Source: an uncultured Bacilli bacterium (GTDB lineage: Bacteria > Bacillota_I > Bacilli_A > RF39 > UBA660). From it: a DNA stretch of 64,000 nucleotides. Under the pieces are notes generated by a model, which was not told where the DNA came from, searched no databases, and saw only the letters and a program-made list of their open reading frames with translations. The stretch is taken from assembly GCA_934102355.1 (NCBI GenBank), contig CAKOSO010000001.1:229620-293619 (forward strand). Reading direction: 5' to 3'. Both the position numbers and the translations under genes were made by a program. The stretch's first letter is position 1. Each line of letters starts with the position of its first letter. Positions 95-49,258 of this stretch are shown here, piece by piece.

Positions 95-1114
95 TTATTC
101 CTCCTTTTTAGCTCTTAACTGCCCGCACGCAGCAGAGATCTTACTGCCAAACTCTCTCCTTATTGTTACATTCATACCTTCTTTTTTAATTATATCATAA
201 AACTTTAAAATAGTATCTTTTTTACTTCTTTTATACAAAATATTACTTGATTCATTATATGGAATTAAATTAATATAACAATTCATTCCTTTTAAAAGAT
301 GAACAAGTTCTTTTGCACAAGAAGGAGAATCATTAATTCCATCTAACATTATATATTCAAAAGTAACTCTACGATTAGTTTTTGAAATATATTCCTTTAT
401 GCAAGGTATTAAAACATCAAGAGAATAAACTTTATCAACAGGCATTAATTCTTTTCTTAAATTATCATTTGGAGCATGAAGAGATATAGCTAGATTCACC
501 TGAAAAGGAAGTTCACTAAATTCTTTAATCTTAGGAACAATACCACATGTAGAAACAGTAATATGTCTAGAACCTAAATTAAGAGCTTTGTGATAATTTG
601 CGATCGTAATAAATTTAACAACATTACCATAATTATCAAAAGGTTCTCCAATACCCATAATAACAACATGTGTAATTCTTTTACTAATTAGCTTCTCAAT
701 AGTCATTATCTGAAGTAACATTTCAGAAGCATATAAATTTCTAACTTTTTTTAATCTTCCACTTTCACAAAAAGTACACCCCATATTACATCCAACTTGA
801 CTAGAAATACATAAACTTAAACCATAGTCATGATACATTAAAACAGCTTCTATATGGTTTTTATCATAAAGCTCAAATAAGTATTTACTTACATCAACAT
901 CATTTTGAGTTTTAATTATAGAAGGTCTTTCAATACTAAATTCATCACTAAGTTTTTTCTGTAAATCAGAAGATAAATTAGACATCAAATAAAAAGAGTC
1001 AACTCGCTTATCATATAACCACTCAAATATCTGTGTAGCACGAAACTTTTTTTCACCAATACTAATTAAGTATTCCGCTAACTCACCAATTGTCATATCA
1101 TATATACTTTTCAT
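95..1114 (-). CDS. rlmN: 23S rRNA m2A2503 / tRNA m2A37 methyltransferase RlmN (radical SAM)
   Basis: 339 aa with the CNMGCTFC radical-SAM Cys triad, the GIGEP motif and an RlmN/Cfr-family C-terminus. AGGAG RBS upstream of the ATG at 1114. Confidence 0.85.
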   Translation of the reverse strand: MKSIYDMTIGELAEYLISIGEKKFRATQIFEWLYDKRVDSFYLMSNLSSDLQKKLSDEFSIERPSIIKTQNDVDVSKYLFELYDKNHIEAVLMYHDYGLSLCISSQVGCNMGCTFCESGRLKKVRNLYASEMLLQIMTIEKLISKRITHVVIMGIGEPFDNYGNVVKFITIANYHKALNLGSRHITVSTCGIVPKIKEFSELPFQVNLAISLHAPNDNLRKELMPVDKVYSLDVLIPCIKEYISKTNRRVTFEYIMLDGINDSPSCAKELVHLLKGMNCYINLIPYNESSNILYKRSKKDTILKFYDIIKKEGMNVTIRREFGSKISAACGQLRAKKEE

Positions 1115-2759: not shown

Positions 2760-3614
2760 TTATTTTTTTGAAATTTGTTTTGTATTATCTACATACTCAT
2801 ATTCTAAATTATTAAAAGTAGATACTGCAGATCGTTTAGTTTCCTTTTCATACAAATCTCTTGCACCTTTTGCTACCCCTCCACCACGTCTTGCCACTTC
2901 AAGATTTTCTTTCAATCCCTTTGGTTTCTTTTCACGTGCAATATCTCTTGTAGTAATTTCACCAATATTACTTAAAGCAACTTCAATATCTGTCATATTA
3001 TCTCTTAATGATTCTTTTCTAAGCCCTTTATACGTTTTATACTCATCAGCCTTCATTCCACACCAGGTTTTATAAATTTCATTTGTTAACATTCCATATT
3101 CATAATTTTCATTAATTCCACCTTCTTTCCATATATCTGTTAATTTTTTACGATTAAGAATTCCTTTTAATCTTATACTAATCCAATCATCCGAATAACC
3201 TTTTTTACGATAATAATCAATAGCTCTATTAATTGCCTTTTCAGGATCAAAAACCTCATCAATTCGTTCTTTACCCAAGGAAGCTAACCACATTTTAAAT
3301 GGCTCAGCCTTAGGACTAGGAACAGATTCAATTAACCTAAATATTCCCTTCGTATCCAAAGTATCAGTAAGATAACTTTTACCATCCTTTTTTGATTTCA
3401 TTTTAAGTTGCACGATATTTTCGTGCAACTGACTTCCTTCTTCTGACAATTTTCTTTTTAAATCGCTCCAATAATTTCTTGGTATGTTAGAACCAGTCAA
3501 AGCACCAATAACATCAACCACACTAAAATAATAATCTTCCTTCTTGCTATCCCAAACACTTCTTATTTCACTACCTTCAAATAAATTAGAAATTGTTTTT
3601 AATTTGTTATTCAT
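2760..3614 (-). CDS. Bro-N domain protein (phage antirepressor / DNA-damage-inducible-protein-D-like N-terminus)
   Basis: The N-terminus FEGSEIRSVW...YYFSVVDVIGALTGS matches the Bro-N fold pattern. Strong GGGAGG RBS. Two TTACCAATT copies lie immediately upstream. Confidence 0.55.
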   Translation of the reverse strand: MNNKLKTISNLFEGSEIRSVWDSKKEDYYFSVVDVIGALTGSNIPRNYWSDLKRKLSEEGSQLHENIVQLKMKSKKDGKSYLTDTLDTKGIFRLIESVPSPKAEPFKMWLASLGKERIDEVFDPEKAINRAIDYYRKKGYSDDWISIRLKGILNRKKLTDIWKEGGINENYEYGMLTNEIYKTWCGMKADEYKTYKGLRKESLRDNMTDIEVALSNIGEITTRDIAREKKPKGLKENLEVARRGGGVAKGARDLYEKETKRSAVSTFNNLEYEYVDNTKQISKK

Positions 3615-8311: not shown

Positions 8312-8337
8312 AAAAAAGCGTCTTATTAAACGCCTTT
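8312..8337 (-). terminator. terminator at the 3' end of the T4SS-like operon
   Basis: GCGTCTT...AAACGC hairpin abutting the stop codon at 8337, with an A6 run (T-run on minus). Confidence 0.45.
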
Positions 8338-20637: not shown

Positions 20638-21408
20638 TTAAAGTTGTTTTCTAACTCTAGTTAAAGCATTTTTTTCAAGCCTTGATATTTGTGCCTGAGA
20701 AATACCTATTTCACTTGCTATCTCCATTTGTGTTTTACCTATTATAAATCTTTGATCAATTATATATCTATCCCTTTCAGATAAATTAGAAATTGCTTTA
20801 TTTAAAGCTATTTTAAGATCTAAATCTTCACTACACTTTTTGTCTTCAATTTGATCAAATAAATATATAGTATCACCACCATCATTATATATAGGTTCAA
20901 ATAAAGAAACTGTAGGTTTTAAAGATTCCAAAGCATTAATTATATCAAACTCATCAATTTCTAATAATTCTGCTAACTCTTTCACAGTAGGTTCCTTACC
21001 ATTTTGAAGAATTAACTCATCTTTTAGTTTTAAAACCTTATAAGCAATATCCTTAACACTTCTAGAAACCCTAATAGTATTATTATCTCTTAAATATCTT
21101 TTAATTTCACCAAGAACCATAGGAACACAATATGTAGAAAATTTAACTCCATAAGATAAATCAAAATTATCTATAGCTTTTAAAAGACCAATACATCCAA
21201 CTTGAAATAAATCATCTAAATTTTCATCTTTTCTATTAAACTTTTTAAGAATAGATAAAACTAGTTTCAAATTACCATCAACAAGAAGTGTTCTAGCATT
21301 CATATCACCATTTTTAAATCTTGTAAATAACTCTGTCATCTCTTCACTAGATAAAACCTTGATATCATTTGTATTAACACCAGTAATATCAACTTTATAT
21401 TTTGCCAT
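20638..21408 (-). CDS. sigG: sporulation sigma factor SigG
   Basis: 256 aa, near-colinear with B. subtilis SigG (DLFQVGCIGLLKAIDNFD, VSLFEPIYNDGGD, GISQAQISRLEK). Confidence 0.85.
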   Translation of the reverse strand: MAKYKVDITGVNTNDIKVLSSEEMTELFTRFKNGDMNARTLLVDGNLKLVLSILKKFNRKDENLDDLFQVGCIGLLKAIDNFDLSYGVKFSTYCVPMVLGEIKRYLRDNNTIRVSRSVKDIAYKVLKLKDELILQNGKEPTVKELAELLEIDEFDIINALESLKPTVSLFEPIYNDGGDTIYLFDQIEDKKCSEDLDLKIALNKAISNLSERDRYIIDQRFIIGKTQMEIASEIGISQAQISRLEKNALTRVRKQL

Positions 21409-21626: not shown

Positions 21627-22484
21627 TTATTTTTCATAATATAATGTTTCATCTTTTTTCATATTTATATAATAAATACCTTCTTTTGGAGCTTTAAATA
21701 ATTTATATTTATTTTCTATTGATTCATCAGGATTTGTAGGATCTATAGGAGGATCTATAATTGGTTCTACTTTATAAACCTCTATATCATCAGTATTAGC
21801 AACCCACTTATTATCATCAATCTTATACCAACTATAATCACCATTTAAAGTAACATCATAATAATTATAAATTCCTAAATCAATATATCCAAGAATTTCA
21901 CCATTTGGTTCTTTTCTACATCTTAAATATTTATTTTTTACAAGAATTTGATTTTTAGTAGTATCCCTATCTACTATCAAAGATGAACCAACAACTCTAA
22001 AAACCTTAGAAGAAGTCACATTATCATTAGACATTCCTTGATCATCAAATAAAAACACATACTGAGTTGGATCAACTCCATATTTCAGTCTGTCATAAGG
22101 ACTATAAACATAATCAATAGGACATTTCCACAATTCTAAATGTAAATGATTTCCAGTTGATGAACCAGTACTTCCCATAACCCCTATTGCAGTTCCTCTT
22201 GTAACAGCATCACCAACTTTATAAATAGATCTATTATTCATATGTAAATACTTATGAATCCACTTATATCCATCACCAATAGTTTCTATAGCAATGTAAT
22301 TACCAGCAGCTGAATCAAACCTTTCATCAACTACGACTCCATCATTTATAGCAAGTATAGAAGGATACATTCCACCACTTACACTACTCCAACCAAGATC
22401 AAGTCCGTAATGAACTCTATCATCAGTACTACCATATGGATCAGTAATTGCTACATAATTTAAAGGATACCTATTGTACTTCAT
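21627..22484 (-). CDS. M23/LytM-family peptidoglycan endopeptidase with a C-terminal SH3-like region
   Basis: HYGLDLG and GNHLHLE motifs. Start at the internal ATG at 22484 (MKYNRYPL) so as not to overlap the upstream gene. Confidence 0.65.
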   Translation of the reverse strand: MKYNRYPLNYVAITDPYGSTDDRVHYGLDLGWSSVSGGMYPSILAINDGVVVDERFDSAAGNYIAIETIGDGYKWIHKYLHMNNRSIYKVGDAVTRGTAIGVMGSTGSSTGNHLHLELWKCPIDYVYSPYDRLKYGVDPTQYVFLFDDQGMSNDNVTSSKVFRVVGSSLIVDRDTTKNQILVKNKYLRCRKEPNGEILGYIDLGIYNYYDVTLNGDYSWYKIDDNKWVANTDDIEVYKVEPIIDPPIDPTNPDESIENKYKLFKAPKEGIYYINMKKDETLYYEK

Positions 22485-22872
22485 TCGTACCGCCCTTAAT
22501 ATTATTATCAATAGGAACTGATACTACTTTTGTTTCTTCATCCTTTTTAGCAACAATACTTGTTGAAACATTTAATAACTCTTTTAATTTAACTAAATCT
22601 TTATATCCATAAACTATTATACTAGCAATAAATAATGTCTTAACAGCTTCCGCAAGATTCATACTTATCCCAGCAACATCAGCAACTATAATATCCGGAT
22701 TTAAAACTCCACATAAATACATAAGTCCAATACCTGTAACAATACAAAGCGACTTAAACATGCCTGCAAAAAGTCGCTTTAAACAAAACTCACATTTAAA
22801 CGTAGATATTGTAACTCCTAAAAAAGTGTTAGAAAGCATTACACACAAAAGGCCAATTACTATATTTTTCAT
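22471..22872 (-). CDS. small 3-TM protein, possible TcdE/UviB-type (phage_holin_4_1) holin
   Basis: 133 aa with 3 predicted TM helices and a charged C-terminus. Weak resemblance to TcdE-family holins. Directly upstream of a PG hydrolase gene. Confidence 0.35.
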   Translation of the reverse strand: MKNIVIGLLCVMLSNTFLGVTISTFKCEFCLKRLFAGMFKSLCIVTGIGLMYLCGVLNPDIIVADVAGISMNLAEAVKTLFIASIIVYGYKDLVKLKELLNVSTSIVAKKDEETKVVSVPIDNNIKGGTNEVQ

Positions 22873-25329: not shown

Positions 25330-25680
25330 TTAATCTTTTGGTTTAAATATAAGAGCAAATATAAAGCTAAATACCAAAGCAGAAGTAATTCCTGCCGCAG
25401 TAAGATCAAACATCCCCATAGAAACACCCATAGCACCACTCTCTACACTTCTATGAAGTGCACCATGAGCTAGTAAATGCCCAAAACTTGTAATAGGAAC
25501 TAAAGCACCTCCACCAACCTTTTGAATAATTTTATCATAAATACTAAAAGTATCAAGCAAAGCCCCGATTACAACAAACATAGCAGTAATATGCCCAGCA
25601 GAAAGTTTAGTATTATCTATAATGATTTGAGCAATCAAACAAAGAGCACCTGCAAACAAAAATGAATATATATAAGTCAT
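25330..25680 (-). CDS. spoVAEB: stage V sporulation protein AEb
   Basis: Small polytopic SpoVAC/SpoVAEb-family protein. Start at 25680 (GGAGGTAGTGGA RBS), ATGA-coupled to spoVAD. Confidence 0.7.
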   Translation of the reverse strand: MTYIYSFLFAGALCLIAQIIIDNTKLSAGHITAMFVVIGALLDTFSIYDKIIQKVGGGALVPITSFGHLLAHGALHRSVESGAMGVSMGMFDLTAAGITSALVFSFIFALIFKPKD

Positions 25681-26672
25681 TCCACTACCTCCAAACAAAC
25701 AGCATTAGCAATTCCTAAAATATCTTGTTTTTGAAAAACCATCGTTGGATTAAATAAAGCACCAGTAGCTATTAATAAAACTTTTTTTAAATTTTTCTTT
25801 TTTAACATATCTAAAATATATCCGTAATTCACAAGTGCACTACAAACCGGACCTGATCCACCGGCCATAACCTCTTTTTGTATTTTTGTATCATATAGCA
25901 TTAAACCACAATCATTATATTTACGAGAAACTAATATATTATACTTTCTAGCCATTATATCTTTTAATATTTCTGCACCATAAATACCTAAATCACCAGA
26001 TAAAACTAAATCATAATCATCTAAAGTAGTATTAGTGTTATTTAAATGCCTAACTAATGTATCAGCACATGCAGGTGCCATAACTGCACCCATATGATTT
26101 ACATCAGTCTGATGCAAATTTATAACCCTACCAATAGTAGCAGAAGTAACTCTTATATCACTTTTCTTTCTAGAAAGCAAAATACTTGCACCACCAGTTG
26201 CAGTAAAAGTAGCAGTAGATGGTTTCAAAGCTCCATATTCTATTGGATTTCTAAACTGTTTTTCAGCAACCAAATTATGAGAAGAAGTTGTACAAATAAT
26301 ATTTTTAGCAAGTTTTGATTCTAAAAAAGAAGAACCGATAATTAAACCTTCAATACTAGTAGCACACGCCGTATATACCCCTAAAAAAGAAGCCTTATAA
26401 TCAGAAAATGCATAACAAGAAGAAGCTATCTGATTAGTTAAATCACCACCAATAAATATATCAACATTATCTTTAATAATTTTTTCTTTATCTAACAAAA
26501 TATTAATTGCATCCTTTTGCATCTTAACCTCTGATAGCTCAACAGATTTTTTGTCCATATAATAATCATTATAAACTTTATCAAAAAATTCTCTTAAAGG
26601 ACCATTTGCTTCAACCGGACCAGCTACAGTTGCAGAATTTAACACATAAACATTATCAAATTTTAAAGTCAT
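25677..26672 (-). CDS. spoVAD: stage V sporulation protein AD
   Basis: 331 aa with a thiolase-like fold (CATSIEGL... motif), between spoVAC and spoVAEb. Confidence 0.8.
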   Translation of the reverse strand: MTLKFDNVYVLNSATVAGPVEANGPLREFFDKVYNDYYMDKKSVELSEVKMQKDAINILLDKEKIIKDNVDIFIGGDLTNQIASSCYAFSDYKASFLGVYTACATSIEGLIIGSSFLESKLAKNIICTTSSHNLVAEKQFRNPIEYGALKPSTATFTATGGASILLSRKKSDIRVTSATIGRVINLHQTDVNHMGAVMAPACADTLVRHLNNTNTTLDDYDLVLSGDLGIYGAEILKDIMARKYNILVSRKYNDCGLMLYDTKIQKEVMAGGSGPVCSALVNYGYILDMLKKKNLKKVLLIATGALFNPTMVFQKQDILGIANAVCLEVVE

Positions 26673-26674
26673 AA

Positions 26675-27121
26675 TTAACCTCCCACAACCAAAGCAAATA
26701 AATACCTTATTATACTAAATACATAAGCTGAAATAACCCCATACAATATAACTGAACCAGCAAGTTTAAAAATATTACTTCCAATACCATATATTAAACC
26801 TTCTTTTTTATAATCTAGTGCAGCACTACAAACAGAATGAGCAAAACCTGTTATCGGTATAATAAATCCCATCTTTCCAAACTTAACAAAGTTATCAAAA
26901 ACACCAATTGCAGTAAGAAAACAAGCAATAAATATTAAAGTACTTATCATAAATACACTTGCATCATTACTACTTATTCTTAAAATATAAGAATAAAAAT
27001 TAATCAAAAAATTTGCTATGGCTCCAATAAGTCCACCAACAACAAAAGCAATAAAAGCATTATAAACTCTATGCTCCTTAGGTAAATGCTTTTTTACTAC
27101 CAAATCATAATTATTTTCCAT
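26675..27121 (-). CDS. spoVAC: stage V sporulation protein AC
   Basis: Polytopic SpoVAC-family protein. Start placed at the ATG at 27121 (MENNYDLVVKK), downstream of a forespore-type promoter. Confidence 0.7.
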   Translation of the reverse strand: MENNYDLVVKKHLPKEHRVYNAFIAFVVGGLIGAIANFLINFYSYILRISSNDASVFMISTLIFIACFLTAIGVFDNFVKFGKMGFIIPITGFAHSVCSAALDYKKEGLIYGIGSNIFKLAGSVILYGVISAYVFSIIRYLFALVVGG

Positions 27122-27135
27122 ACAATCACCATTTT

Positions 27136-27164
27136 TAGTATGGAAAAGCAAAAAATATTTATAC
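27136..27164 (-). promoter_or_regulatory. SigG/SigF-type forespore promoter of the spoVA operon
   Basis: Minus-strand GTATA (27160-27164), 17-nt spacer, CATACTA (27136-27142). This matches the GYATA-N17/18-CATNNTA consensus. Confidence 0.55.
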
Positions 27165-27171
27165 AACAAAA

Positions 27172-27190
27172 AAATGCACAATGTGCATTT
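27172..27190 (-). terminator. terminator of the coupling-protein gene
   Basis: Perfect 9-bp palindrome AAATGCACA-a-TGTGCATTT followed by T7 on the minus strand, between the T4CP stop (27196) and the spoVA promoter. Confidence 0.55.
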
Positions 27191-27195
27191 AATTA

Positions 27196-29322
27196 TTATT
27201 CATCAAAGAAATCATCAAAGAATTCATCTTCAGTAATCTTAATTTTCTTAGAATTATTAAAGATATTTGATACATCATCTTTTGCTTCATCAACAATTGA
27301 TTTTAATTCTGTTTTTTCAGTATTTTCAACTTCTTTAATTTCTTTTTCTTTTTCAAGTTTTTCCTTTTCTAATTTTTCTCTTTCTTCTTCCTCTTTTTCA
27401 AGTTCAGCAATCTTCTCATCAATTCTCTTAACTAGTTCATCTACATCAAAATCATTATCATTAGATCCACCAATTAATTTATCTATATCGTTTGAATTAT
27501 TATTAAATGGTAATGGATTAACAGGAGCTTGTGCAAAAGGATTTATTCCAGAACTTAATCCAGCAAAAGGATTATTATCCATTTGATTCATCATGCTATC
27601 TTGCTTTTTACTTTGAACAAAAGCCTTTAAATCAAATGTAGCAATTGGTTTTTTCTCGCGTTGAACAAATGGATCTGCTTCTGTCTTATTAATACCCCAA
27701 TCAGTTTTCCAGTTAGGATAAAGTTTTGTTTTATATGGACGACATCTAGTTTTAATAACAATTGCTTCGTTTTCTTTCATAAGTTGTAATTCTGAAACAG
27801 AAATTAAAGGCCTTGTTTCTTCATGTTCCTTATCGCCTTTACCAACTTTCACCTTTTTCTCACCACATAACTTTGAAATTTCTTCCAAAGCAGAAAGTTC
27901 AGTAGTAAGTAGATATAATAAATTATTACAGTTACTACGTATTGTTTGTGCAATCTCTTTAGAATAAGTAGCTTCAAGACCAGCAAAGTTTTGAATAATC
28001 ATTGTAAGTCTTATATGTCTTGATCTTGCAGCTGCAACCATTGTAGTAACATCTTTTAACGGAGGCATATTTTGGAACTCATCAAGTATAAAATTAGTTC
28101 TTATAGGTAATGCTCCATTTTGAGTATGTTGAGCAACATCAATCAAAGATTCATAACATTGTTTAATAAAAATAGTAGCTAGAGCATGATATGTTTTCTT
28201 TTCATCTTGTATAATCATAAATACTGCTGTTTTTTCTTTACCAATCATGTCCATATCAAAGTCACTAGTAGAAAGCATCTCAGATAAATTTTCACGAGAA
28301 GCAAAAATTCTTATCTTTTGTTTAAATGTAGAAAGTATTGAACCCTTTGTTTCTTCTGGAGCATAAACAGTACCACTAGCACATGTATAAGCAGCACTAG
28401 CAGGATTCTTTCCATTAAAGTATTCTTTTATATATGAACTTCTTGGTCCAAATCTTTCTTCACCAACTGATGCCATTACTGAAATACTATTAATATTTAC
28501 TTCCTCTTCTTTAGCATCCTCAAAAAGGCCTAAAGTAAGACCAGCGAAAAAATCAGCTGAAGTCTTTTCCCAGAAAGCATCTTTATTTCCGCCCTCTTCA
28601 TACAAGATATTAGAAGCAACGTCATCCAAAAGCTCCATTGCTTTATCAACATTACCACTTTTATATAACTTATAAGGTAAAGCTAAAGGATTCCAAGAAT
28701 TTCCTCTTTGGGGTTCACGGAAGTTTAATACAACAATCTTATAACCTCTTTCTTTTAATAATCCAGCACTTTCTTTGTATATTTCACCTTTTGGATCGGT
28801 GATAATCATTGATTCACCTTTTTTAATTAAAATCTTAACAAGTGGATGTACAACATCTTGCGTCTTACCAGCACCAGTAGATCCAATAACTAAGTTATGT
28901 GATTCACCATTATCAAGCCATATTTTTTTACCATCATTTATAAGTGGAAAACCAGCAACATTATAATATGGTTCTTTAATATCTACACAATCAAGTTTTT
29001 GTTTCATTTCTTTAGTTGTAGCAAATCTAGAATAACCACCTTTATCAGTTTCACCAAAACTTATTCCAAATCCCTTTTCTTTATCATAAAAATGAGAAGA
29101 AACACTAACAAATAAAAATATTAATACAACAAAATAAAATACAAGTACCATAGATATATATTTAGGACCAAATCCTATAAATGGATTAAGTCCAGCAAAA
29201 CTACCAGTAGTAGCAAAAGTATTAATATTAACAACTAAAATTGATACAGCAAAAAGTAAAACAACCGCAAATATTGCAAAAATAAACCAATCTTTTGGTG
29301 TAGCCTTCAACTTAAACTTCAT
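27196..29322 (-). CDS. VirD4/TraG-type type IV coupling protein (T4CP) ATPase
   Basis: 708 aa. 2 N-terminal TM helices, Walker A VIGSTGAGKTQ, Walker B FILDEF, and an RSRHIRLTMIIQNFAGLEATYSKE tail motif typical of the TraG/VirD4 family. Low-complexity E/K-rich C-terminus. Confidence 0.7.
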   Translation of the reverse strand: MKFKLKATPKDWFIFAIFAVVLLFAVSILVVNINTFATTGSFAGLNPFIGFGPKYISMVLVFYFVVLIFLFVSVSSHFYDKEKGFGISFGETDKGGYSRFATTKEMKQKLDCVDIKEPYYNVAGFPLINDGKKIWLDNGESHNLVIGSTGAGKTQDVVHPLVKILIKKGESMIITDPKGEIYKESAGLLKERGYKIVVLNFREPQRGNSWNPLALPYKLYKSGNVDKAMELLDDVASNILYEEGGNKDAFWEKTSADFFAGLTLGLFEDAKEEEVNINSISVMASVGEERFGPRSSYIKEYFNGKNPASAAYTCASGTVYAPEETKGSILSTFKQKIRIFASRENLSEMLSTSDFDMDMIGKEKTAVFMIIQDEKKTYHALATIFIKQCYESLIDVAQHTQNGALPIRTNFILDEFQNMPPLKDVTTMVAAARSRHIRLTMIIQNFAGLEATYSKEIAQTIRSNCNNLLYLLTTELSALEEISKLCGEKKVKVGKGDKEHEETRPLISVSELQLMKENEAIVIKTRCRPYKTKLYPNWKTDWGINKTEADPFVQREKKPIATFDLKAFVQSKKQDSMMNQMDNNPFAGLSSGINPFAQAPVNPLPFNNNSNDIDKLIGGSNDNDFDVDELVKRIDEKIAELEKEEEEREKLEKEKLEKEKEIKEVENTEKTELKSIVDEAKDDVSNIFNNSKKIKITEDEFFDDFFDE

Positions 29323-29400
29323 ATAAAAATCACCTCAGTAATATTCTCCTTAATTATATCAAAAGGCATATTAATAAACAAGTAATAACAAAAATATTTA

Positions 29401-29862
29401 TTAACGTCCCTTCTTACCCTTTTTCTCTTCTAAATAAAACTCTTCTTGATATACATAATTCATTTTATTCTTAACTTCTTGTTCTAATATTTCTAATTTT
29501 TTTATAAGAATATTATATTCTTTTTTATCCATAAACTCTTTATATTTAAACATTATTAACTGTCTAAATTTTTCTATTTCATTTAAAGCCAACATAAATG
29601 AAGATGGATCAGTATTATCACTATCAAATAATAACTTTAAAAGTTTTAAAATTCTATCCATGTTTCTCTTGCTTTTCTTTGAAACATAATTTTTAATTAA
29701 AATAGGATTATAAAGTGTAACTTTAGACACATTGATCATACCATCAAGTTTAAAATCCTTCTTAGGACTGACACTAAGTCCTTTTAAATTTTCAAATTCA
29801 CAAGCAGTAATTTTATTTTTTTTAGCTTTTTTGCAAACAGTAAATTTTGTAAATTCAGACAT
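29401..29862 (-). CDS. hypothetical basic protein
   Basis: 153-aa ORF occupying the position where rplS usually follows trmD. Confidence 0.4.
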   Translation of the reverse strand: MSEFTKFTVCKKAKKNKITACEFENLKGLSVSPKKDFKLDGMINVSKVTLYNPILIKNYVSKKSKRNMDRILKLLKLLFDSDNTDPSSFMLALNEIEKFRQLIMFKYKEFMDKKEYNILIKKLEILEQEVKNKMNYVYQEEFYLEEKKGKKGR

Positions 29863-29872
29863 ATTAACACCT

Positions 29873-30535
29873 CTATTTTAATAAGTCCCCTCTTTTTTCT
29901 TTTGTAATTCTAATTTGTTCTTGGTGCCTATATTCATTTATCTTTTTGTGATCACCACTAAGCAAAACATCAGGTACTTTCATACCTCTAAAATCTCTAG
30001 GTTTTGTATAAGTAGGATAATCTAATAAATTATCATTAAATGATTCACTTTCAAGAGACTCAACTGATATAACTCCATCTAAAAGTCTAATTATAGAGTC
30101 ACTTATAGCCATTGCAGGAATTTCTCCACCTGTAAGTATAAAATCTCCAATAGAGACTTCAAAATCTGCTAACGACCTTATTCTATCATCAAAGCCCTCA
30201 TAATGTCCACAAATAATAATTAATTCTTTTATATTTTTAAAATCATTTGCCATCTTTTGATTATAAGTTTTTCCATCAGGAGTAAGTAATATAACCTTAG
30301 AATCAGCTGTTCTTACAGATTCAACTGCATCAAAAATAGGTTGAGGTGTTAATACCATACCAGCACCACCCCCAAAAGGTGTATCATCAACCTTCTTATG
30401 TGGATCCTTACTAAAATCTCTAAAATTAATTATATTTACTTCAACTAATCCATTATTTATTGCCCTTTTAATAATTGATTCATTTAAAAAACCAGTAAAC
30501 ATTTCAGGAAAAAGCGTCAAAATATTTATTTTCAT
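29873..30535 (-). CDS. trmD: tRNA (guanine37-N1)-methyltransferase
   Basis: 220 aa, SPOUT fold, conserved TrmD motifs (ILTLFPEMF, GGGAGMV). Confidence 0.85.
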   Translation of the reverse strand: MKINILTLFPEMFTGFLNESIIKRAINNGLVEVNIINFRDFSKDPHKKVDDTPFGGGAGMVLTPQPIFDAVESVRTADSKVILLTPDGKTYNQKMANDFKNIKELIIICGHYEGFDDRIRSLADFEVSIGDFILTGGEIPAMAISDSIIRLLDGVISVESLESESFNDNLLDYPTYTKPRDFRGMKVPDVLLSGDHKKINEYRHQEQIRITKEKRGDLLK

Positions 30536-31026
30536 ACCAATCCCTCCACATTTTTTAAAAGTAAAATATTATTTTTTAAATCAACCACATTAATAAAATT
30601 ATCATTTTTAGGAACATATATAGTTTTATTTCTATCTTTTATAACAAATACATCATTACCATTTCCCATATCATTAATACTAACAACAGTACCAATAAAA
30701 TTATTATTAAAATATACTGACATATTAATAAAATCTTCATTAACATATTGATTATAAGAAAGTTTAAGTTGATCTTTAGATACAAACACAAGTAAATTTT
30801 TATAAGGAATAACTTTATCAATATCATCTAAACCATTAAGCATAACCATATCATAATCCTTATGAACTCTATAAGATAATATTTTTCGTTCCTCATAATT
30901 TTTACCAATATATAAAGTATTACCAACAACAAATACTTTATCTTTATACTTAAAATTAGAACGTATCTTAATCTCACCCTTAATGCCATGAGTAGTAATT
31001 ATTCTACCAATATAAACATACTCCAT
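30532..31026 (-). CDS. rimM: 16S rRNA processing protein RimM
   Basis: Start at the ATG at 31026 (MEYVYIGRIITTHGIKGEIKI), preceded by a GGAGGAG RBS. PRC-barrel C-terminus. ATGA-coupled to trmD. Confidence 0.8.
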   Translation of the reverse strand: MEYVYIGRIITTHGIKGEIKIRSNFKYKDKVFVVGNTLYIGKNYEERKILSYRVHKDYDMVMLNGLDDIDKVIPYKNLLVFVSKDQLKLSYNQYVNEDFINMSVYFNNNFIGTVVSINDMGNGNDVFVIKDRNKTIYVPKNDNFINVVDLKNNILLLKNVEGLV

Positions 31027-31112
31027 AAAACTCCTCCAAACAATCAAAATATACGTATATATTATAAATTAAATTTCAAAAAAATAAAAGAAAAAAAGAT
31101 ATATAAATATCT

Positions 31113-48259: not shown

Positions 48260-49258
48260 TTAATTTATAGTTGTATTAGTCCTATCATTTATAACAGATG
48301 TAGTTTTTTTATTACAATCTTTTAATACATGAATAAAGCCCAGGAACTTTAATCCCTTCTTCTTTCCAGCAATCATATCTGAATAAAACTTAGTAGATTC
48401 AGTATGCGTACAACATTTATGAGCTGATGTATTACAGCCTGCTTTTGGATATCTATCAGTATTACATTCAAATATTGTGAGATTTCCTTTTCCGTCATTT
48501 GCTTCAACTACTTGAATATGTCCATATGAAGAGCCAGAAAACATATATACAATTAATGTTCCAGGTGTTATTTTACTAATATCACTATCCATTACAAAAC
48601 CATTTTCACCCAAATTAGCGTTATTATAATAATAATCTTTAGCATGCCCAGCTATAGAATCAAATTTTTTCCAAGCAGTTGGATCTGCAGAAGGTAAAAA
48701 GCTTTTAAAATAAGCATAAACTCCCTCAGCACATTGACCATTAGAAAGCTTTTTAGCAGTATACTTTCCTCCACATATCTTACTAGTGTATGTACCAGAT
48801 CCAGTTCCACCACTAGAACCTCCAGAACCACCAGAGCTACCAGATCCACCTGAACCACCATTACTATTACTTTGGTTTTTCTTTGCCTCTTCTTGTTTCT
48901 TTTTTTCCTCTTCAGCTTGATATTTATTAATATTTTCAATAGTAGCATTTTCTAAACAATCAGTGAAATTTTCACTTTCACCCATATTACCAATAGTAAT
49001 CATTAAAGTATTCACAATAGTAGGAACAAAGAAAATAAGTAAAGAATAAATAACTCTTTTAATAAGAAGTTTTACTGCTTTGTTCTTTTCTTTATCATCA
49101 GATGCAATTACTGCTTTAAATAAATCAATCATAGCAAGTACTACTAAGATTATTGGAACAGCAATTTTAATTATAATCACAATTATTTTTAAAAAATAAA
49201 TTACTTTTAAAATACTTGAATTAGTACAAACAGACATAAAACTCATAAATCTCACCAC
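48260..49258 (-). CDS. fusion of the small 2-TM pilin-like module (paralog 3), a Gly/Ser linker and a CHAP-domain peptidoglycan amidase/peptidase
   Basis: N-terminal IKIAVPIILVVLAMIDLFKAV...KLLIKRVIYSLLIFFVPTIVNTLM matches the 14641 and 15079 genes. Followed by (GGS)n-like low complexity, then a CHAP domain with Cys (GQCAEGVY) and His (GHIQVV) catalytic contexts. Confidence 0.65.
   Translation of the reverse strand: MVRFMSFMSVCTNSSILKVIYFLKIIVIIIKIAVPIILVVLAMIDLFKAVIASDDKEKNKAVKLLIKRVIYSLLIFFVPTIVNTLMITIGNMGESENFTDCLENATIENINKYQAEEEKKKQEEAKKNQSNSNGGSGGSGSSGGSGGSSGGTGSGTYTSKICGGKYTAKKLSNGQCAEGVYAYFKSFLPSADPTAWKKFDSIAGHAKDYYYNNANLGENGFVMDSDISKITPGTLIVYMFSGSSYGHIQVVEANDGKGNLTIFECNTDRYPKAGCNTSAHKCCTHTESTKFYSDMIAGKKKGLKFLGFIHVLKDCNKKTTSVINDRTNTTIN

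Follow-up and report, generated by a model that had tools for sequence, protein, structure and literature searches.

The 64,000-nucleotide stretch of DNA analyzed here (hereafter, the window) belongs to an uncultured Bacilli bacterium of the GTDB lineage RF39 (contig CAKOSO010000001.1, positions 229,620 to 293,619) and carries, directly upstream of the spoVA sporulation operon, a single gene for a VirD4/TraG-type coupling protein (T4CP), the ATPase that feeds substrates into a type IV secretion system (T4SS). Very probably, this T4CP is a selected coupling ATPase of a chromosomal T4SS of small-genome gut Bacilli, and its position next to spoVA is a by-product of genome rearrangement. In a clade of spore-forming gut Bacilli that are uncultured and have small, AT-rich genomes, this T4SS is probably a fixed part of the chromosome, and we infer that the adjacency of the T4CP and spoVA has no functional meaning. 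The gene in question is

27196..29322, minus strand: T4CP, VirD4/TraG-type coupling ATPase, 708 amino acids (aa), assigned by hidden Markov models (HMMs), motif conservation and profile matches

The product of this open reading frame (ORF) is a full-length VirD4/TraG coupling protein and a bona fide member of a known family, in agreement with the first-pass annotation of the window, in which it had been called a VirD4-type T4CP and HMM confirmation had been proposed. Three Pfam domains, T4SS-DNA_transf (1.3e-54), TrwB_AAD_bind (1.4e-23) and TraG-D_C (4.3e-23), are present in the 708-aa protein, and the NCBIfam model NF045973 (“VirD4-like conjugal transfer protein, CD1115 family”) matches it over model positions 16-433 of 442 with 310.2 bits, against a curated cutoff of 250 bits. 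The Walker A (GSTGAGKT, residues 147-154) and Walker B (ILDEF, residues 412-416) motifs are conserved across 24 orthologs. The N-terminus comprises two hydrophobic transmembrane (TM) stretches, at approximately residues 12-34 and 55-76, and an AlphaFold2 model built from a 16-sequence alignment contains helices at 9-38 and 56-81 (predicted local distance difference test score, pLDDT, 77-86). A profile of 16 T4CP orthologs produced weak matches to TrwB (1e9r, E=1.1e-5) and DotL (6sz9, 1.5e-3); a single-sequence search of the PDB gave no match.

The core of the protein is followed by a tail of approximately 170 residues, variable, acidic, coiled-coil and of low complexity over residues 541-698, and the C-terminus reads EDEFFDDFFDE (27196-27230; the last ~15 residues are …ITEDEFFDDFFDE). 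All full-length T4CP orthologs finish with the pattern [DE][DE]xFF[DN]DFF and a few acidic residues, preceded by ~150 hypervariable residues; the motif is also found in P0376, a representative with 50% identity, and is missing from outgroups with at most 49% identity. The FFDDFF-type C-terminus is probably a short linear docking motif and, given the analogy with the F-plasmid TraD tail that binds TraM, the T4CP tail could be a docking site for an adaptor or a substrate. In a library-wide HMMER search, approximately 18 full-length 50%-identity clusters of the window T4CP type were recovered, and below 50% identity come outgroup T4CPs with different N- and C-termini. In two of these outgroup proteins, P0383 and P0389 (from metagenomes, with 46-48% identity to the core of the T4CP), an N-terminal DUF4062 domain replaces the membrane anchor (Pfam 2.8e-26 and 1.1e-29, respectively), and such soluble T4CP-like ATPases probably are not secretion proteins; further T4CP-like ATPases of the nearest outgroup bear Sel1-like or long unassigned C-terminal domains. 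A single ortholog, in L021 (10001-12405), is split into ORFs of 426 aa and 384 aa, as a frameshift pseudogene or through an assembly error, and is the sole disrupted copy among 25. An antisense ORF in the window, 27086-27586(+), 166 aa, was rejected as a gene, being a low-complexity, Ser/Phe-rich shadow of the T4CP tail.

Judged by its sequence, the T4CP is intact, under purifying selection and functional, not a relic. The identical protein is encoded on four independent metagenome contigs with the same gene order, trmD-hyp-T4CP-spoVAC, and the arrangement is therefore not an assembly artefact. Comparison of the window T4CP gene with three contigs of the same species reveals 15 differing sites, of which 15 are synonymous and 0 nonsynonymous. 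Between the window and a sister species, the T4SS ATPases are 89% (VirB4) and 75% (T4CP) identical, compared to 57-80% for seven housekeeping proteins (trmD 80%, rlmN 76%, mutS 76%, TP-methylase 74%, spoU 64%, ygjP 62% and rimM 57%), 48-61% for the pilins and 36% for the VirB6-like protein; the T4SS ATPases have thus kept pace with the divergence of the core genome, and the exposed parts of the system evolve fast.

These data bear on the possibility, also raised in the first-pass annotation, that the T4CP is a remnant of an old insertion of an integrative and conjugative element (ICE) or a conjugative plasmid, an orphan decaying between trmD and spoVA. The gene is indeed solitary, 17 kb from any VirB4 gene, T4CPs are typical cargo of mobile elements, with the best curated family, CD1115, being plasmid- or ICE-borne, and the Bro-N domain genes of the window hint at past mobile DNA. 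Such an origin is nevertheless highly improbable in view of the full-length ORF with intact Walker A and B motifs, the strictly synonymous within-species variation, a divergence equal to that of core genes, and the existence of orthologs with 49-80% identity in at least 24 other genomes, mostly within a complete T4SS operon. The GC content of the T4CP gene (~30%) is like that of neighboring core genes, e.g., xfp (phosphoketolase), in a window of ~26% GC with nearly all genes on the minus strand. Searches for relaxase, integrase and transposase genes covered the 64-kb window and +/-10 kb around each locus in the relatives. Within that scope, no integrase or transposase domains, including that of the DDE transposase, were detected in the scanned window ORFs or in the loci of relatives, and no relaxase domain was detected in the scanned window ORFs, the L009 operon and its flanks, the conserved neighbor families or the annotated neighborhoods. 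Around positions 26900-30000, the search for att-like flanking repeats returned only AT-rich noise.

The alternative offered in the same annotation, namely that the T4CP serves the dispersed T4SS-like system of the window, is favored: in relatives, its orthologs are physically located within the VirB4 operon. The T4SS genes of the window and the genes that mark their ancestral surroundings are

8337..15480, minus strand: main T4SS module, recognized by T4SS_pilin, TrbL_4 and TraG P-loop/CagE domains, models and synteny
15079-15480 and 14641-14988, minus strand: pilin paralogs
11190-14630, minus strand: VirB6-like protein, 1146 aa
10848-11174, minus strand: VirB3-like two-TM protein (p108), assigned from sequence
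10121-10897, minus strand: VirB4 N-domain as a separate ORF (p258)
8337-10124, minus strand: VirB4 ATPase, 595 aa
16107..16553, plus strand: PedC-like thioredoxin (trx), left-hand neighbor of the T4SS operon in the subclade (conserved divergent trx in L028, L041 and L032)
95..1114, minus strand: rlmN, located directly 3′ of the T4CP in the sister species
48260..49258, minus strand: fusion of a VirB2-like pilin hairpin and a CHAP peptidoglycan hydrolase, 332 aa (CHAP domain; the pilin paralogs match residues ~35-105)

In the main module, the pilin encoded at 14641-14988 scores 33 bits with the T4SS_pilin domain (PF18895; cutoff 26.6). The Mycoplasma-ICE VirB4 model NF045975 is covered by two ORFs, positions 90-277 by p258 and 298-891 by the 595-aa ORF; the score of 342 bits is under the equivalog cutoff of 590, and the model still is the best curated match. 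The split of VirB4 into two overlapping ORFs (160-258 aa and 594-600 aa) is found in all relatives seen. The VirB6-like protein shows weak matches to Mycoplasma ICE membrane-protein models (Mbov_0396 and MMCAP2_0566).

Orthologs of the T4CP were sought in one genome per species, yielding 23 loci with T4CP identity of 49-75%, all in metagenome-assembled genomes labelled uncultured Bacilli, ‘Tenericutes’, Mycoplasmatota or ‘Mycoplasma sp. CAG:611’; one of these, L009, is a closed 1.26-Mb chromosome in which the operon is complete, hydrolase included. In GTDB, the family CAG-611 is placed in the order RF39 (PMC8035907), which groups with Mycoplasmatales-related orders (PMC10868615). In 18 of the 23 loci (19 of the 25 related genomes examined, when L041 is included), the T4CP gene lies at most ~3 kb downstream of p108-p258-VirB4. 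The consensus operon consists of 1-3 VirB2-like pilins, the VirB6-like protein, the two-TM VirB3-like protein, the split VirB4, a hydrolase in most cases (SpoIID+CHAP, 620-865 aa, or NlpC/P60), a lipoprotein or TM protein, and the T4CP. The cluster is compact in the two genomes nearest to the window. In the sister species (L028; T4CP 75% identical), the order is proS and trx(-), followed by the VirB6-like protein, p107, p243, VirB4, two pilins and the T4CP, and then rlmN, prpC and prkC; in L041 (64% identical), trx(-) is followed by two pilins, the VirB6-like protein, p106, p218, VirB4 and the T4CP, and then ftsY. Of this ancestral order, the window retains trx, the pilins, the VirB6-like protein, p108, p258, VirB4 and rlmN. 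Several relatives encode RmuC and a UvrD-like helicase after the T4CP. Two further families present in relatives are f10, of lipoproteins, and f11, of 342 aa and ParA-like by eye only; Pfam searches of the conserved neighbor families f7, f10, f11 and f15 revealed no informative domains.

In two of the related loci, L032 (10434-16370) and L040 (2241-12031), genes of the type VII secretion system (T7SS) type are interspersed with or adjacent to those of the T4SS or the T4CP, namely genes for WXG100 proteins and a 1517-1538-aa EssC-like ATPase with FHA and FtsK/SpoIIIE domains. The order in L040 is EssC-like, 236 aa, Mbeg1-like, 84 aa, ParA-like and T4CP, followed by gdpP-rplI-dnaC. This region of L040 and L032 may be a T7SS/T4SS hybrid locus.

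The T4CP gene of the window lies ~17 kb from the VirB4 module, and rlmN ~7 kb from VirB4, with unrelated genes in between. One of the intervening genes encodes a Bro-N domain protein; two such proteins are encoded in the window, at 2760-3614(-) and 57984-58811(-) (Pfam ~1.5e-10 each). The Bro-N gene located in this ~7-kb stretch, at the ancestral VirB4/rlmN position of the T4CP, may be a trace of the displacing event. The pilin-CHAP fusion, the two parts of which are joined by a Gly/Ser linker, is encoded far from the other T4SS genes and is likely a VirB1-type wall hydrolase of the T4SS, the third dispersed piece of the system.

The variation of the flanks among lineages could also be explained if the whole T4SS were a currently mobile element of the Mycoplasma ICE type, such that the differences reflect transposition rather than host rearrangement. 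The best matches of VirB4 and the VirB6-like protein are indeed Mycoplasma ICE models, the families f10 (lipoprotein) and f11 (ParA-like by eye) echo CDS14 and CDSG of these elements, and Mycoplasma ICEs, which encode no recognisable relaxase, use a DDE transposase to insert without site preference (PMC6030558). Nevertheless, current mobility is unlikely. No DDE transposase or integrase was found in or near any cluster examined, and the operon flanks in relatives are housekeeping genes, identical on both sides in six species, with trx conserved as the left neighbor in four species. The components are split by housekeeping genes in the window and in three other lineages, the T4CP being detached also in CAG-611, L007 and L012, yet they are under purifying selection, and their divergence tracks that of the core genes.

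The second issue is the junction between the T4CP and spoVA, with the elements

25330..27121, minus strand: operon of spoVAC (26675-27121), spoVAD (25677-26672) and a spoVAE-type gene (25330-25698), identified by HMMs
27165..27190, minus strand: intrinsic terminator of the T4CP unit, 8-bp stem, 3-nt loop and T-run, identified by folding
27136..27164, minus strand: predicted SigG/SigF-type spoVA promoter, GTATA-N17-CATACTA, identified by motif match and conservation in register
29353..29381, minus strand: candidate sigma-A promoter of the T4CP gene, read from sequence
29401..31047, minus strand: unit upstream of the T4CP, with rimM (30532-31047), trmD (29873-30535) and a gene for a conserved 153-aa protein (29401-29862)

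The terminator hairpin, at 27190-27172(-), starts 5 nt past the TAA stop codon and consists of AAATGCACAttgTGCATTT followed by the T-run TTTTGTTG, with a folding energy of -13.6 kcal/mol (z = -2.8). Thus, the T4CP unit possesses its own terminator close to the stop, as stated in the first-pass annotation, but the perfect 9-bp palindrome described there has 9-nt arms around one central base and effectively amounts to an 8-bp stem with a 3-nt loop. The T4CP gene of the sister species likewise closes with a hairpin terminator, with a different hairpin sequence.

The SigG/SigF consensus derived from B. subtilis promoters consists of a -35 element of the G-ATA type and a -10 element CATA-TA, 17-18 nt apart. 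The match GTATA-N17-CATACTA (27164-27136), which had been proposed as a forespore-type promoter preceding spoVAC at 27121, is the sole one in the window but is not significant alone (0.38 expected per window; at least one in 30% of shuffles), and a relaxed SigG/F motif scan of the window detected no further gene-proximal copy. In three related genomes (L032, L033 and L034), spoVAC is preceded by GTAT[A/G/T]-N17-CATAATA-AAAATGGTGAT-N3-ATG in the same register as in the window, the upstream gene being an epimerase in L032 and sigF in L033 and L034. The motif is kept in register despite different upstream genes, which makes it a real element that moves with spoVA; the predicted promoter belongs to spoVA and is ancestral to it. 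spoVAC starts with the ATG at 27121, upstream of which GGTGA serves as the ribosome-binding site, and its product matches the NCBIfam model spore_V_AC over positions 2-140 of 141; a TTG start at 27181 was rejected because it overlaps the terminator and homology favors the ATG. The neighborhood spoIIAA-sigF-spoVACDE-scpAB, considered canonical, is preserved in L033 and L034; in the species of the window, spoVA moved together with its own promoter.

The T4CP gene, with a GAGGTGA ribosome-binding site at 29336-29330, is preceded by a candidate promoter comprising TTGTTT (29381-29376), a 17-nt spacer and the extended -10 element TGATATAAT (29361-29353). TGnTAxAAT elements are found upstream of the detached T4CP orthologs (L030 and L006), and none are found upstream of the operonic ones in L016, L010 and L028. 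The T4CP gene thus appears to form a monocistronic unit with a putative extended -10 sigma-A promoter and a terminator of its own. The remaining T4SS genes of the window have sigma-A-type (TTGACA-type) promoters.

Recruitment of the T4CP to sporulation, in the forespore or mother cell together with SpoVA or as a SpoIIIE-like DNA pump, is a reading that the location of the gene invites: the gene is immediately beside a SigG-type spoVA operon, with the sigG gene itself 5 kb away (20638-21408; 367 bits), T4CPs are placed within the FtsK/SpoIIIE superfamily in a 2025 review of T4SS (PMC12857230), and in L032 spoVA directly adjoins the T4SS locus. We consider such a role very improbable. The T4CP and spoVA units are separated by the terminator, the region upstream of the T4CP contains the sigma-A extended -10 and no CATA-type -10, the adjacency is absent from the sister species and all 23 loci, the spoVA promoter is conserved whatever gene lies upstream, and most T4CP orthologs are operonic with VirB4. 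The link to sporulation implied in the first-pass annotation accordingly gives way to a species-specific adjacency of two units that are insulated by a terminator and separate promoters.

On the other side of the T4CP, the 153-aa protein is lysine-rich and has no Pfam or NCBIfam match. It had been taken for a hypothetical gene that replaces rplS after trmD, but ~150-aa homologs with 39-58% identity are located directly 3′ of trmD in all three relatives examined (L035, 9676-10140; L036, 4204-4647; L037, 9666-10127), so that such a gene is the norm at this position and, by its conserved location, the ~150-aa protein behaves as a member of the rimM-trmD operon in the clade. The next genes are mutS in L035, ddl-rplS-lepB in L036 and pfkB-smr-sspI in L037; because they differ every time, this site is a recurrent rearrangement breakpoint, not one of rplS replacement in the window strain. 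rplS is not present in the 64-kb window. Identification of the 153-aa protein as a degenerate rplS was rejected, given the lack of similarity and the coexistence of the ~150-aa gene with a true rplS in L036. Neither contiguity of trmD, rplS and spoVA nor an ICE boundary, the combination that the first-pass annotation had regarded as decisive against its proposal, is seen in the relatives. Elsewhere in this part of the window, a holin/endolysin-like pair is encoded in the interval that separates sigG from the phosphoketolase gene (21627-22872, minus strand). It consists of a 133-aa protein with multiple TM segments, whose ORF overlaps the beginning of one for an M23 peptidase extended at its C-terminus; the two could function in sporulation (SpoIIQ-like) or in remodelling of the wall.

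Taken together, the T4CP very probably lies beside spore genes only because the genome of the window species was reshuffled. The ancestral operon was broken by rearrangement; the VirB4 module remained beside trx at 8.3-15.5 kb, the T4CP was relocated to a site between the rimM-trmD-hyp150 operon and spoVA, and the pilin-CHAP hydrolase is found at 48.3 kb. In the assembled machine, the two N-terminal helices would hold the motor, a hexamer of the FtsK/TrwB-like kind, in the membrane, and the flexible acidic tail with the FFDDFF motif would bind an adaptor or the substrate in the way that the TraD tail binds TraM. The substrate, recruited via the tail and the all-alpha domain, would be fed at the expense of ATP hydrolysis to the VirB4/VirB6 channel, which would cross the wall opened by the CHAP hydrolase and bear the VirB2-like pilins.

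Several observations weigh against this reconstruction. Neither a relaxase nor an origin of transfer (oriT) was found in the 64-kb window and the +/-10 kb around each locus. The promoter assignments are consensus readings: only 14 nt separate the end of the spoVA -10 element from the ATG, which makes for a very short leader, and the T4CP promoter is not listed by the sigma-A scan because its -35 matches at only 3 of 6 positions. There is no terminator after the gene for the 153-aa protein, so that the T4CP could also receive read-through from the trmD operon. The spoVACDE genes of L032 (7570-9798) directly adjoin the trx at the left boundary of the T4SS locus, a second spoVA/T4SS neighborhood, arranged unlike that of the window; we assume that this proximity arose by chance or goes back to the common ancestry of a region prone to rearrangement. 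The overall mean pLDDT of the AlphaFold2 model is 51, too poor for use, because the alignment (only 63-99% identical sequences) is too shallow. Finally, the placement of the relatives in RF39 derives from record titles and one paper rather than from phylogeny.

As to the substrate, DNA is the leading candidate, with conjugation-like transfer of chromosomal DNA or of an element, as in Mycoplasma ICEs, having a somewhat better than even chance of being correct. The reasons are that nearly all Gram-positive T4SSs move DNA, that the nearest curated relatives are conjugative, that Mycoplasma ICEs transfer DNA without a recognisable relaxase, and that RmuC and the UvrD-like helicase follow the T4CP in several relatives. 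The main alternative, which we regard as plausible although it is the less probable option, is that the T4SS has been repurposed for a non-conjugative role like that of the Patescibacteria T4SS. More speculatively, the T4CP could receive the substrates of a T4SS that lacks a relaxase, bears pili, is inherited vertically, serves RF39-like gut Bacilli as a core organelle and is dedicated to cell-to-cell acquisition or exchange of DNA or other molecules from neighbors rather than to the spread of mobile elements, with the FFDDFF tail docking a clade-specific adaptor. This proposal, which we advance only tentatively, would place the system alongside the essential T4SS of epibiotic Saccharibacteria as a second case, independent of it.

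Gut Bacilli of a widespread, uncultured order found in humans and animals thus seem to keep a Patescibacteria-like, pilin-bearing, relaxase-less T4SS as ordinary chromosomal genes, and the T4SS survived being scattered around the genome. If the core organelle proposal proves true, the system could offer clues to the lifestyle and uncultivability of these reduced-genome bacteria, for which numerous auxotrophies are reported; chromosomal genes might flow by this route in the gut, and the Mycoplasma ICE machinery would be linked to the Patescibacteria T4SS. For spoVA, the outcome is negative but useful, namely a rearrangement by-product and no new link between sporulation and secretion.

The closest curated family of the T4CP, the CD1115-family VirD4-like T4CPs (NF045973) of plasmids and conjugative transposons of Clostridioides, Clostridium, Planococcus and Exiguobacterium, shares with it the domain set, the N-terminal anchor and the Walker motifs, and the window protein scores above the cutoff of this family. 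However, the plasmid copies are only 27-33% identical to the window T4CP, reside in conjugation operons on mobile replicons, whereas the window gene is chromosomal, fixed and solitary, and lack the FFDDFF C-terminus in the two cases checked. The tail itself resembles that of F-plasmid TraD, likewise a variable, acidic, probably disordered extension that ends in a short conserved acidic/aromatic motif, and the window T4CP contains the TraG-D_C domain. According to the 2025 review, TraD-TraM contacts are needed for substrate recruitment (PMC12857230). The two tails show no sequence homology and no TraM-like partner was identified; the analogy is a conjectural one.

Among complete systems, the ICEs of Mycoplasma (M. 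agalactiae ICEA and M. bovis ICEB) encode TraG/VirD4 (CDS5), TraE/VirB4 (CDS17), CDS16, a lipoprotein (CDS14), CDSG and a DDE transposase (CDS22) (PMC6030558). Like the T4SS of the window, they have a minimal monoderm T4SS with no recognisable relaxase, and with a lipoprotein and a partition-like gene (PMC6030558); they come from a related host lineage (PMC10868615) and provide the best curated match for VirB4 and the VirB6-like protein. Unlike them, the window system has a split VirB4 that remains under the equivalog cutoff of the Mbov_0397 family (342 vs 590 bits), possesses VirB2-like pilins and a CHAP/SpoIID hydrolase, and belongs to hosts predicted to be walled and sporulating. The Mycoplasma ICE is a packed 27-kb mobile unit, whereas the T4SS genes of the window are dispersed among core genes, with no DDE transposase in the loci examined.

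In architecture only, the window system is similar to the T4SS of Patescibacteria/Saccharibacteria (Wang et al., 2023, PMC10633639; Quinonero-Coronel et al., 2025, PMC12102498), which is also chromosomal, of the monoderm MPF_FATA type, with no relaxase nearby, found in uncultured hosts with reduced genomes, and equipped with arrays of VirB2-like pilins (PF18895) in addition to VirB1, B3, B4, B6 and D4. The Patescibacteria system is essential for epibiotic growth (PMC12102498; PMC10633639). The hosts differ in phylum, being Bacillota in the present case, and in that those described here are spore-forming. In the 2025 review, VirB2 pilins are considered unknown in Gram-positive T4SSs outside Patescibacteria, and nearly all Gram-positive T4SSs are said to be located on mobile elements and to move DNA, with the Streptococcus suis 89K island and the Patescibacteria system named as exceptions (PMC12857230). 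Full-text literature searches found no paper that links RF39 to a T4SS or describes a relaxase-less, pilin-bearing chromosomal T4SS in RF39-like Bacilli, and the consulted passages of the 2025 review do not report one in this lineage either. Compared with these known systems, the T4SS described here is unusual in combining VirB2-like pilins without a nearby relaxase, chromosomal fixation in spore-forming, small-genome Bacilli, and tolerance of dispersal.

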